Positions 56,941 to 58,933 of a stretch of 64,000 nucleotides of DNA are shown here, piece by piece (position 1 is the stretch's first letter; every line of letters begins with the position of its first letter). The notes under the pieces were generated by a model. The model saw only the letters and a list, made by a program, of their open reading frames with translations. It was not told where the DNA came from and ran no database searches. The position numbers and the translations under genes were made by a program. This DNA is from a virus (Duplodnaviria; Caudoviricetes): the IMG/VR virus record IMGVR_UViG_3300022876_000002; one strand, given 5' to 3'.

Positions 56941-57456
56941 TATTACCCTACATAAAAAGGTTATCCAGTATAAATGCAAAAAAGAAAAGCATTACCTACC
57001 AGTACCTAAACCACATGGGCAAGGACTGGTAGGCTAAGCTTAACTACACTGGGATGCTATCAACTAACTAGGTCGAACCCTACAACGACCAGGTATGTGA
57101 TTGAGCAATACAATATAAAGTGCAGTTACAAAAAAATAAAGTATAACCCCACCCAATACCCCTAGACCAGGCGACAGTGTCGGCTAGGATCAGGGCATTG
57201 AGCAGGGGGAGGTTTTCTTTGGTTGCCTCAACAGCACAACCCAACCAGCGAATAACTAGGCAGACGATTACTGGTTGTTGCCTTAGGACCTCCTAACCTT
57301 TGGCAGGGGCAGGGGCTACAGCATGGGTCGAAGATACAAAGGAAGAGTGACGTACCAATTGAGAGGCACACCGGCCAGCAAACCTGACAACGGGTACATC
57401 ACTCTGACTAGGCAAGCGAGGGCAAGCTTAGTCTACACGGCCGCTAGGTCCATGTT

Positions 57457-57532
57457 TGGCTCCACGTCCTGGATTCGAACCAGGGACCAACAGATTAACA
57501 GTCTGCTGCTCTACCGACTGAGCTAACGTGGA
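57457..57532 (-). tRNA. trnN: tRNA-Asn (GTT)
   Basis: 76-nt cloverleaf TCCACGT...CAGA CTGTTAA TCTG...GGTTCGAATCC...ACGTGGA G CCA with encoded CCA. Confidence 0.97.
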
Positions 57533-57541
57533 AGAAATATT

Positions 57542-57787
57542 GACGGTCCATTCGGGCTTTTACCGCACTTACTCATGAGCTTGCGGCTCAAGGGGGTCCG
57601 ACCGTCCGGGCGCCGAGTGCTTTCTTTACCTACCAGGGTTCCTTGATCAATGGTCCTTTGTAGGTTAATATGTTGTTCGACCTGGTAAGGGGGAAGGGAG
57701 GCTCGTTTTATCCCCCGACTTGGACCCATGCACCGTATGGACTACTGGGCGGCTCCTTTTAGTGTAGCCCGGCTGTACCCTACCGTC
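57542..57787. ncRNA. Putative multibranched structured RNA
   Basis: Nested closing helices 57542-47/57782-87 and 57553-58/57766-71 enclose several hairpins; no convincing ORF. Confidence 0.5.
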
Positions 57788-57820
57788 TTTCCACCAGATC
57801 AAACAAACTCTTAAATAAAG

Positions 57821-58112
57821 TATCCGTTCGCCACACCCGCGTTATTCGCATTCCGCAAGCGCGTCATGTACTTACATTCCCGTTGCCACGGATCACAGCA
57901 AAGCACGCAGAGCGCGCTAGCACGGGAAAGAGTCCCCCTAGGACTTCTTGTGTGGGCGGCTTGCGCAATGCAAAGCCGCCCTGCGAGCCAACCTGACCGT
58001 CGGCTAAATGCCAGCAACAAGGTACCGTGACGAACCTTGTTGCCGGACTAGGTGTGTGTTCCTCAGCGCCCTTCGCCGCCCACAGCGCACCACCTTTGCT
58101 GAGGGACACACA
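57821..58112. ncRNA. Putative structured RNA of consecutive long hairpins
   Basis: 9-, 10- and 15-bp stems at 57954-81, 58014-43 and 58053-58112. Confidence 0.5.
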
Positions 58113-58114
58113 TT

Positions 58115-58254
58115 TGGTAGAGAGTACACGATTCGAACGTGTGGGCCCATAAGTGTCGTTGGCCGACACCCTGAGCACATCCGGTTTCATGTAAGGCCGC
58201 CCTAGGGTACGCCCACAATCCTCCAGACTCCTTAAACCACTCGGACAACTCTCT
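58115..58254 (-). ncRNA. Oversized tRNA-like RNA (class II scaffold, expanded anticodon loop and variable arm)
   Basis: Perfect 7-bp acceptor AGAGAGT/ACTCTCT plus A-CCA, D arm TCCGAGTGGTTTAAGGA, T arm ACACG-TTCGAAT-CGTGT; 38-nt anticodon loop and 37-nt variable region. Confidence 0.85.
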
Positions 58255-58271
58255 GTTAACTTTGTATAACA

Positions 58272-58402
58272 TAGGAAATCGGGACGGATCCCAGGGTAGA
58301 GCCCTGGTCTTACGCCGTAAGCATACGACGCATTATGGATCGCCCTCCGTCTTGAGGCTTTTCTTCCCTAAGTCTAGCCAACCCTGACGGCCGTTAGGCT
58401 AG
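58272..58402 (-). ncRNA. Putative structured RNA between the tRNA-like RNA and tRNA-Leu
   Basis: Nested stems 58272-78/58364-70, 58283-88/58346-51 and 58291-96/58302-07, plus 58374-79/58397-402. Confidence 0.4.
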
Positions 58403-58434
58403 AGAGTTAACCGCAACCCGGGTTTATCCAAATA

Positions 58435-58520
58435 TGGTGCGAGAGACGGGCATCGAACCCGTATGGCCAGAAGCCGACAGATTTTAAGTCTGTTGTGTAT
58501 ACCAATTCCACCACACTCGC
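58435..58520 (-). tRNA. trnL: tRNA-Leu (TAA)
   Basis: 86 nt; GGTGGAATTGGTATACAC D arm, ACAGA CTTAAAA TCTGT anticodon arm, variable arm, GGTTCGATGCC and A-CCA. Confidence 0.95.
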
Positions 58521-58559
58521 AAAACACACCGTTACATATCATAACCATGTGTAGTAAAA

Positions 58560-58890
58560 AGATAAGAGGAACTGCTCCAGATTGCGACATCCTTCACAAT
58601 CCCTCTGTCACCTAGACCTCGGTAATAGTGTTAACCCTTTTACCGCCGTAAAGGCCCGCCTCATCAAACTCTCTGCTCACAACCATGCTGCCGGCCAGAT
58701 CGAAATCACAGGGCGGTCAGCACAGAAGAAGCCCAGTAGGAAAGTTTGGGTGACTTAGTGGGTTTGACGTTCCACTCATAGGTTCTGCTTAGAAAAGCTT
58801 GTCATCGCGATTCATCGCATCATACAACCACCGGCTCCACCTTAAGGTTCCGGCTGATCTCCTCAATGGGAGAATTCGGTTTAGGCGTTA
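58560..58890 (-). ncRNA. Putative structured RNA upstream of tRNA-Leu
   Basis: 8-bp stem 58580-87/58594-601, a GAT-TTCG-ATC tetraloop hairpin on the minus strand and several 5-bp stems; no ORF. Confidence 0.35.
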
Positions 58891-58933
58891 ACAATCACAC
58901 CTGTTGTATATAATGGATTATTGCAGTAACAAA

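Follow-up and report, generated by a model that had tools for sequence, protein, structure and literature searches.

The tRNA region of a soil-derived, nucleus-forming jumbo phage (chimallivirus) probably harbors, between its tRNA genes, a series of self-contained folded RNA genes comparable to rnaC and rnaD of phage T4 and to the stable RNAs of phage T5. The region is part of the 64,000 nt of IMG/VR record IMGVR_UViG_3300022876_000002 that were analyzed here (from here: the window). It forms a cassette on the minus strand that consists of tRNA-Leu(UAA), tRNA-Asn(GUU) and seven non-tRNA modules, in the order of transcription blocks F and E, a 140-nt tRNA-like RNA and blocks C, B, B2 and A, with tRNA-Leu between F and E and tRNA-Asn between B2 and A. 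A preliminary description, drawn from the letters of the window, had seen a cassette of structured non-coding RNAs among tRNAs, and comparison with related phages bears this out by conservation and compensatory changes. New here are the B family, with its pseudo-symmetric, proposedly pseudoknotted fold and its presence in unrelated phages, an anticodon-less RNA read as a class-II tRNA mimic in this clade, and a very abundant RNA from block F.

A non-coding cassette upstream of phuZ

The chimalliviral character of the source phage is evident from four genes. PhuZ tubulin is encoded directly downstream of the cassette (ORF 55850-56845, minus strand; phrog_4733, E 2.5e-69; ORF, open reading frame), the nuclear-shell protein chimallin by ORF 46865-48925, a divergent family-B DNA polymerase by ORF 50949-53054 and a beta-type subunit of a multisubunit RNA polymerase by ORF 32845-35052. 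Another IMG/VR record, G001, is 98-99% identical to the window over the whole cassette, and all close relatives originate from soil metagenomes.

The ORF-free stretch between phuZ and a 396-aa ORF (58934-60124), both on the minus strand, extends over 2088 bp (56846-58933) and is slightly larger than the 1.8 kb without credible ORF noted before. The minus-strand block order read previously, including tRNA-Leu, tRNA-Asn and the hairpin with a T-tract near 57130, is correct. The longest ORF within the stretch (108 aa, 58190-57864) is only 93 aa long in relatives that are near-identical, lacks a Pfam match and has no counterpart in relatives with 82% or 73% PhuZ identity, and beyond the portion overlapping the 140-nt tRNA-like RNA no ORF of the cassette is conserved. 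That small protein genes are hidden here and were missed by ORF lists is highly improbable. ORFs of 58-108 aa do exist on both strands, and GenBank places small ‘hypothetical protein’ coding sequences over B in Erwinia phage pEa_SNUABM_9 (L009:2558-2812) and Pseudomonas phage HPP-Temi (L010:2524-2616), but these are probably mis-annotations. Indels in the cassette are not multiples of three, the substitutions in helices are compensatory, and B, inspected as a peptide gene, has no conserved reading frame.

When Rfam 15 was searched with cmscan, with gathering thresholds for the whole window and with E<=10 for 56800-59100, only the two tRNAs were matched and the remainder stayed at chance level. 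There was no match to GOLLD, ROOL, HEARO, raiA or other large Rfam RNAs at either setting, so that the analogy to GOLLD and ROOL drawn in the preliminary description is not upheld. Neither the hammerhead, twister, twister-sister, pistol, hatchet and HDV-like (hepatitis delta virus-like) ribozyme models nor the riboswitch models of Rfam gave a match at E<=10 over 56800-59100. Single-sequence folding energies were unexceptional (z = +0.15 for the tRNA-like RNA, -2.05 for B, +0.59 for F and -0.91 for B2), and paralogy between the blocks was limited to short repeats.

Modules are conserved yet separable

Comparison loci were fetched by PhuZ similarity, yielding five comparable cassettes upstream of phuZ. 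PhuZ identity to the window is 100% in G001 and L027, 82% in L028 and L029, and 73% in L007, L030 and L031. In the whole-cassette alignment each block is conserved, yet separable from its neighbors. L027 lacks exactly 57814-57537, that is B plus B2, despite its identical PhuZ, while G001 and L028 possess an additional B2-like leader and tRNA-Gln 3′ of tRNA-Asn. The slot of B is taken by tRNA-Ser(gct) in L028 and by tRNA-Trp in L007; relative to tRNA-Leu, block E is found upstream in L028 and downstream in the window; and the middle of F is swapped in L027 and L028 for unrelated sequence that is still predicted to fold as a hairpin. Judged from these alignments, the modules are gained, lost and replaced as expected for genes of a tRNA array.

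Among phages with 100% identical PhuZ, the 278 bp of B plus B2 (57537-57814) are present or absent (compare L027:2054-2056 and L008:5207-5390), and likewise the B2-like leader with tRNA-Gln after tRNA-Asn. By sequence comparison, these polymorphisms are equivalent to knock-outs and knock-ins that exist naturally in the same soils. The 82% relative L028 has a different element 3′ of its tRNA-Leu (L028:1971-2150), with a perfect T-arm-like hairpin GAGGG-TTCAAGT-CCCTC and no tRNA call by ARAGORN, which may be another tRNA mimic.

Such presence/absence polymorphism among near-identical phages would also be expected if the modules were selfish mobile DNA, for instance small non-autonomous elements or what is left of introns or homing cassettes, that accumulate in tRNA arrays and have hairpins serving DNA mobility. 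HNH endonuclease genes are found in or beside the tRNA arrays of Pseudomonas phages Psa21 and HPP-Temi and beside B in L016. We nevertheless consider this origin very unlikely, as B plus B2 is not flanked by terminal inverted or direct repeats, paralogous copies are missing from the window and from five whole phage genomes, covariation maintains RNA-type pairs, including G-U, on one strand, and the RNA of block F accumulates (see below).

Block B represents an RNA family absent from Rfam

When isolate phages were searched by blastn with the inter-tRNA region, the match was restricted to about 100 nt (57790-57690) and was found in Pseudomonas phages D6, Psa21 and HPP-Temi and in Erwinia phage pEa_SNUABM_9. 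In all four isolates B is located inside the tRNA array and on the tRNA strand. Pattern scans added five more IMG/VR jumbo-phage contigs, one of which overlaps Psa21, two proviruses or temperate phages (L016 and L018) and one contig of a Xylophilus metagenome-assembled genome that carries phage replication and lysis genes (L025). The neighbors of B in L016 are an HNH endonuclease gene on one side and the gene for the small terminase on the other, and in none of these three temperate-phage contexts does a complete tRNA gene adjoin B. About 60 nt upstream of B in L018, a tRNA 5′ half consisting of acceptor strand and D arm was noticed (L018:2700-2790, minus strand) whose 3′ counterpart is missing from the vicinity; it may represent a tRNA in decay or what is left of an att site. 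ARAGORN calls that would make B an intron within a tRNA in the proviruses were spurious and appeared at low threshold only.

Across 185,579 prokaryote genomes, three of the four matches to the B core pattern were due to chance, and the two that were inspected both lay inside coding sequence. The Xylophilus genome is the only one with a genuine B, and a second, independent pattern led to the same single genome. The covariance model R1 gave 14 matches (12 distinct sequences) with 106 to 157 bits, the window copy scoring 128.6 bits. Exactly one copy was found in each of five whole phage genomes and none in L007, L027 and L028. Four of these five whole genomes encode chimallin according to a PHROG profile, with none detected in pEa_SNUABM_9; a search with a single chimallin protein gave no match in the other B-bearing phages. 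B remains about 80% identical, with invariant loops, across phage genera that differ in the flanking tRNAs. Taken by these searches, B is an RNA family that is absent from Rfam and distributed among distant phages.

The predicted fold of B comprises a closing helix P1 of 12-14 bp and two hairpins, P2 (7 bp) and P3 (6 bp). Each hairpin is preceded by a GGGUAC junction and carries a conserved 16-nt loop ending in GAGCCGCC, and hence B is an internal two-fold repeat. We propose that it holds two pseudoknots. The first would join the junction A(A/G)GGU to the P3 loop, where one pair is AU in six, GC in four and GU in two sequences and never a mismatch. The second would join the second junction to the P2 loop; its pairing is invariant and thus uninformative. 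As an alternative, pairing of the first junction with the P2 loop was considered and rejected, since it creates A-C mismatches in half of the sequences. In the model-based alignment, 89.6% of the cells are paired, compared to 31-58% when the partners are slid, and 19 of the 25 helix pairs are changed on both sides (3-8 with slid partners), values attained in 0 of 500 shuffles. The covariation among jumbo-phage homologs that had been suggested as a check is hence strongest for B. The earlier delimitation of B as a closed domain of 246 nt (57542-57787) is contradicted by the comparison, because L007 and L028 possess B2 but no B, and D6, Psa21 and others possess B but no B2.

Eight other jumbo-phage lineages have B right behind a tRNA, with 0-3 nt between the tRNA 3′ end and B, and in D6 and HPP-Temi the next tRNA follows B at a distance of 5-7 nt. 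From its position, B appears to sit in place of a tRNA gene in jumbo phages, where, being flush against tRNAs, it would be released by ordinary tRNA end-processing.

The same position would suit a catalytic or ligand-sensing RNA, such as a new ribozyme that generates the 3′ end of the preceding tRNA by self-cleavage or a riboswitch-like aptamer. Long invariant single-stranded segments together with two proposed pseudoknots are a typical signature of such RNAs, and theta ribozymes, which are minimal HDV-like ribozymes, abut the 3′ end of phage tRNAs (PMC10879173). For B or another block we regard this as quite unlikely. No ribozyme or riboswitch model of Rfam matched; B does not follow a tRNA in the window, in L016 or in L025; and its 12-14-bp P1 closes the domain without obvious cleavage-site architecture. 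Compared with theta ribozymes, B shares the contact with tRNA 3′ ends but differs in its fold, its many invariant bases and its long closing helix. An aptamer would in addition lack an expression platform, since a tRNA or another RNA block, and no ORF, lies 3′ of B in jumbo phages.

A 140-nt tRNA-like RNA

The 140-nt tRNA-like RNA recognized previously is borne out at 58254-58115. It possesses a perfect 7-bp acceptor stem, a class-II-type D arm, the T arm ACACG/UUCGAAU/CGUGU and a 3′ ACCA, which is encoded in three lineages and missing in L007. The T stem covaries (ACACG/CGUGU versus GCACG/CGUGC in L007), as does the variable arm of about 33 nt in three lineages. The anticodon stem UCUGG/CCGGA is conserved, but it encloses a loop of 38 nt (42 nt in L007), in which a variable extension hairpin is predicted and only NGG at the 5′ side and GAAA at the 3′ side are conserved. 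The readable anticodon and the U33-containing loop of 7 nt that mark the anticodon arm of a tRNA are not found here. The Rfam tRNA model RF00005 did not match this RNA even at E<=10.

A canonical tRNA with an intron was considered and rejected: ARAGORN needed the intron option to call it and then gave a dubious His(gtg) with a 43-nt intron at a non-canonical site, and after removal of the insertion in silico the calls disagreed across lineages (SeC, His, Arg, Gly). No spliced joint was present in the metatranscriptome contigs, which drop rare forms. The pattern of the 5′ half was found only in the same phage clade; one Geobacter match was due to chance and belonged to no tRNA. The 140-nt RNA is read as a tRNA mimic and not as a decoding tRNA.

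Blocks F, E, C, A and B2

The structures of F, E, C and A were predicted with RNAalifold on three to five lineages. Block F is 67-72% identical in L007 and L028; 14 of its 48 predicted pairs are changed on both sides, compared to 0-2 in slid controls, and 92.5% of the positions are paired versus 32-45%. Paired changes were likewise observed for seven of 45 predicted pairs in E (3 sequences), 14 of 62 in C and 16 of 91 in A (3 lineages). The first hairpin of C is nearly wholly rewritten in L028 with its pairing retained. Searches with F and A by blastn against 50,697 phage records gave no match, and the F core motif was absent from the 185,579 prokaryote genomes and seen solely in the same phage clade.

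With about 88-95% identity where PhuZ is 73-82% identical, B2 is the most conserved block, and its variation is too low for covariation. A B2-related leader precedes tRNA-Gln in G001 and L028. The motif CGGUAAAAG is present both in B2 and in F, with three copies in the window versus 0.4 expected. On the minus strand, CGGTAAAAG is located at 57557-57565 in the tRNA-Asn leader, at 58637-58645 and, outside the cassette, at 35296-35304; the copy at 58637-58645 lies just 3′ of the presumed end of the abundant F RNA described below, and the motif recurs in the tRNA-Gln leader of the relatives. It may be a processing or binding signal.

A segment of F is very abundant in soil metatranscriptomes

Sixteen soil metatranscriptome runs contain the stretch. 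As the whole phage genome assembles in these runs, presence alone is no proof of transcription. Local depth became visible where two coexisting alleles break the assembly graph. There, the unitig 58760-58845 reached a word depth of 20,312, 20,554 and 25,000 in runs X3, X4 and X8, respectively, which belong to different studies, and its allele with three differences (G001/L027 type) a depth of 1,989-5,502, whereas the adjoining contigs had 87-632. The edge at 58846 is sharp, with the 31-mer ending there at 13,500 and the next contig at about 100. The other end would lie near 58648, since the low-depth contig of X8 ends at 58677 and many error-variant unitigs cover 58648-58772. Hence, in three independent samples a part of F of about 199 nt exceeds its surroundings 30- to 200-fold in abundance, and this local excess is not explained by uniform carry-over of DNA.

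Directly upstream of F, the motif TTATATAC..GGTGTG (58908-58891) is invariant in the lineages compared and matches weakly the chimallivirus early-promoter consensus TATATTAC of phiKZ and 201phi2-1 (PMC7058600, Table 2); it may be an early-type promoter. Before phuZ, TATATTACCTACGTG (56928-56914) matches this consensus exactly (PMC7058600). Enrichment of the early-promoter motif in the window was not above chance at two mismatches. Between F and tRNA-Leu, a T-run is followed by the TATG-rich motif TATGATATGTAAC, a possible terminator or attenuator with a second promoter. These signals and the at least 30-fold excess of F over the contig with the rest of the cassette point to separate units or very different stability, and argue against the single precursor postulated in the preliminary description. 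Its further suggestion, that several stable RNAs are released, may apply to the F segment with its very high level; the contig with the rest of the cassette reaches only about 430-630.

Relation to known phage RNAs

Stable RNAs of phage tRNA regions are a kind defined by position and not a homology family. The modules studied here lie inside a phage tRNA cluster on the tRNA strand and are non-coding and distinct from canonical tRNAs. In T4, rnaC (species 1, 139 nt) and rnaD (species 2, 119 nt) are stable non-coding RNAs of the tRNA cluster, encoded on the tRNA strand directly after tRNA-Arg, and rnaC resembles the 140-nt RNA in its nearly equal length and in the T arm and acceptor-like stem at its end. 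Phage T5 has eight ‘stable RNA with unknown functions’ (RNAI, RNAIII, RNAIV, RNA1, RNA2, RNA2H, RNA3 and RNAX), three of them labelled tRNA-like, which are interleaved with tRNA genes on one strand as in the cassette, and T5 has internal promoters. The system was thus not as undescribed as had been supposed, the arrangement being that of T4 and T5, and the roles raised in the preliminary description, translation control or decoys against RNA-targeting defences, are conjectural. Still, there are differences. T4, a member of the Straboviridae, ends its array with two such RNAs, whereas the chimallivirus has seven modules around two tRNAs, and the RNAs of T5 were defined by biochemistry, those of the cassette by comparative sequence analysis and one depth signal. 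In comparisons restricted to B and run with filters off, the best R1 scores were 9.6 bits in the T4 tRNA region and 9.7 bits (E 0.5) in that of T5, with no homology detected in either. To our knowledge, none of the stable non-tRNA RNAs of the T4 and T5 tRNA clusters, known for decades, has an assigned function.

GOLLD and ROOL are also phage- or prophage-borne structured RNAs that are sometimes found near tRNAs, but each is a single RNA of 500-800 nt, whereas the modules here measure 100-400 nt each and are separable. In the chimallivirus 201phi2-1, a small RNA derived from a 5′ untranslated region was mapped directly upstream of the tRNA-Leu gene by ONT-cappable-seq (PMC11512511). F likewise adjoins tRNA-Leu on its upstream side; the likeness noted is one of position, and F has no blastn match in isolate phages.

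Stable RNA genes or processing spacers

If the cassette is a set of folded RNA genes, each of its modules would evolve as tRNA genes do, with insertion, deletion, relocation or substitution by a tRNA between close relatives. Phage polymerases would transcribe them, probably as two or more units: an early-type promoter of its own would serve F, and a second start ahead of tRNA-Leu would serve the remainder, as far as the terminator at 57130. Host RNase P would then cut the 5′ end of each tRNA and 3′ trimming would complete its 3′ end, leaving RNAs that would persist because long terminal helices tie up their ends. F would build up as a very abundant species of about 200 nt, its strand being assumed, and the invariant loops of B may indicate that it specifically binds a protein or a small ligand in trans.

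Several observations weigh against this. The covariation of F, E, C and A stems from three or four lineages, with structures predicted from the same small alignments, and these blocks consequently count for less than B. Carry-over of DNA into the ‘RNA’ libraries is possible, so the baseline depth is no proof of transcription for the other blocks. The runs were read as contigs, with a local depth estimate for F only and with strand and exact ends not readable. The contig averaging about 430-630 covers B, E and the tRNA-like RNA, and when the contribution of F is subtracted from the mean of this 7.9-kb contig, roughly 270 remain; no other module in it thus comes near the level of F in these libraries. 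RNAs that are tRNA-sized and modified are poorly captured by libraries of this type. Promoters and terminators were assigned by their motifs, and L027 demonstrates that B plus B2 is dispensable for the phage.

Alternatively, the blocks would act in cis only, as structured leaders, trailers or insulators that let the neighboring tRNAs fold and be cut and that terminate transcription, and would be degraded after processing with no role of their own, a minor but real possibility. B2-type leaders stand before two different tRNAs, A ends in the operon terminator, B and B2 can be missing while tRNA-Asn is kept, and evidence for accumulation exists for F only. Mere spacers, on the other hand, would hardly account for the conservation of B across genera with different flanking tRNAs or for its occurrence in the temperate contexts L016, L018 and L025 without an adjoining complete tRNA, and its 13-nt invariant loops would have no reason. 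The F segment, at 30-200 times the level of its flanks, is not degraded, and the tRNA-like RNA still has a T stem that covaries and an ACCA that is encoded. We therefore favor the reading of the cassette as folded RNA genes.

An extended version, in which B is a new class of pseudo-two-fold, double-pseudoknotted ribozyme, aptamer or specific protein sponge that travels as a gene within phage tRNA arrays and together with F and the tRNA mimic would form an RNA-based toolkit of nucleus-forming phages for takeover or counter-defence, e.g. against host tRNA-processing or tRNA-targeting defence enzymes, appears unlikely. Read as folded RNA genes, the locus would extend the stable RNAs of tRNA regions to nucleus-forming jumbo phages, whose RNAs arise within a protein shell and have to get to the cytoplasm. 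Several handles are available: B is present in the cultured phages Psa21, D6 and HPP-Temi (Pseudomonas) and pEa_SNUABM_9 (Erwinia), a near-identical phage without B and B2 provides a natural knock-out, and F dominates the signal of its phage in soil metatranscriptomes. Should any RNA of the cassette bind a host factor, an old question on phage tRNA regions would become testable.

Features and neighboring sequence

Table 1 Features of the cassette on the minus strand, in the order of transcription
Feature	Position	Strand	Evidence
Promoter-like motif TTATATAC..GGTGTG	58891..58908	-	identical in five of five lineages compared; motif only
Block F, multi-hairpin RNA upstream of tRNA-Leu	58521..58890	-	conservation and paired changes
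Abundant segment of ~199 nt within F	58648..58846	- (strand assumed)	metatranscriptome word depth
T-run (58565-58556), then conserved TATGATATGTAAC motif (58543-58531)	58531..58565	-	sequence; conservation in L007
tRNA-Leu(UAA)	58435..58520	-	ARAGORN; Rfam 54 bits
Block E, structured module of ~165 nt	58262..58434	-	blastn 69% to L028:1722-1883; paired changes
140-nt class-II tRNA-like RNA	58115..58254	-	acceptor stem, D arm, T arm, 3′ ACCA
Block C, hairpin series (58112-58053; 58046-58011; 58006-57986, loop GGUCAG; others)	57810..58114	-	self-complementarity, paired changes
Block B, conserved RNA family	57672..57806	-	covariance model R1, 128.6 bits, E 1e-32
Block B2, tRNA-Asn leader	57533..57671	-	conservation; 44-nt hairpin 57668-57625; motif CGGUAAAAG 57565-57557
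tRNA-Asn(GUU)	57457..57532	-	ARAGORN; Rfam 72 bits
Block A, structured trailer; 62-nt hairpin 57405-57344 and long-range helix	57130..57456	-	paired changes
Terminator hairpin and T-tract, end of A	57209-57147 and 57146-57130	-	present, conserved
phuZ leader	56846..57129	-	second terminator-like hairpin 57041-56987 with T-run; TATATTACCTACGTG 56928-56914; ribosome-binding site; phuZ start 56845

The 396-aa ORF upstream of the cassette has no Pfam, PHROG or Atlas relative, and the same holds for the ORFs 60234-61076 and 61076-61690. The phuZ region 55900-56800 has a G+C content of 56-60%, versus about 45% in the surrounding genes. Further away, contigs of three runs contain ‘opposite strands’ joints at 50276-50307 and 50549-50595, and assemblies break between 50644 and 50889, where short sequences recur inverted elsewhere in the phage genome.

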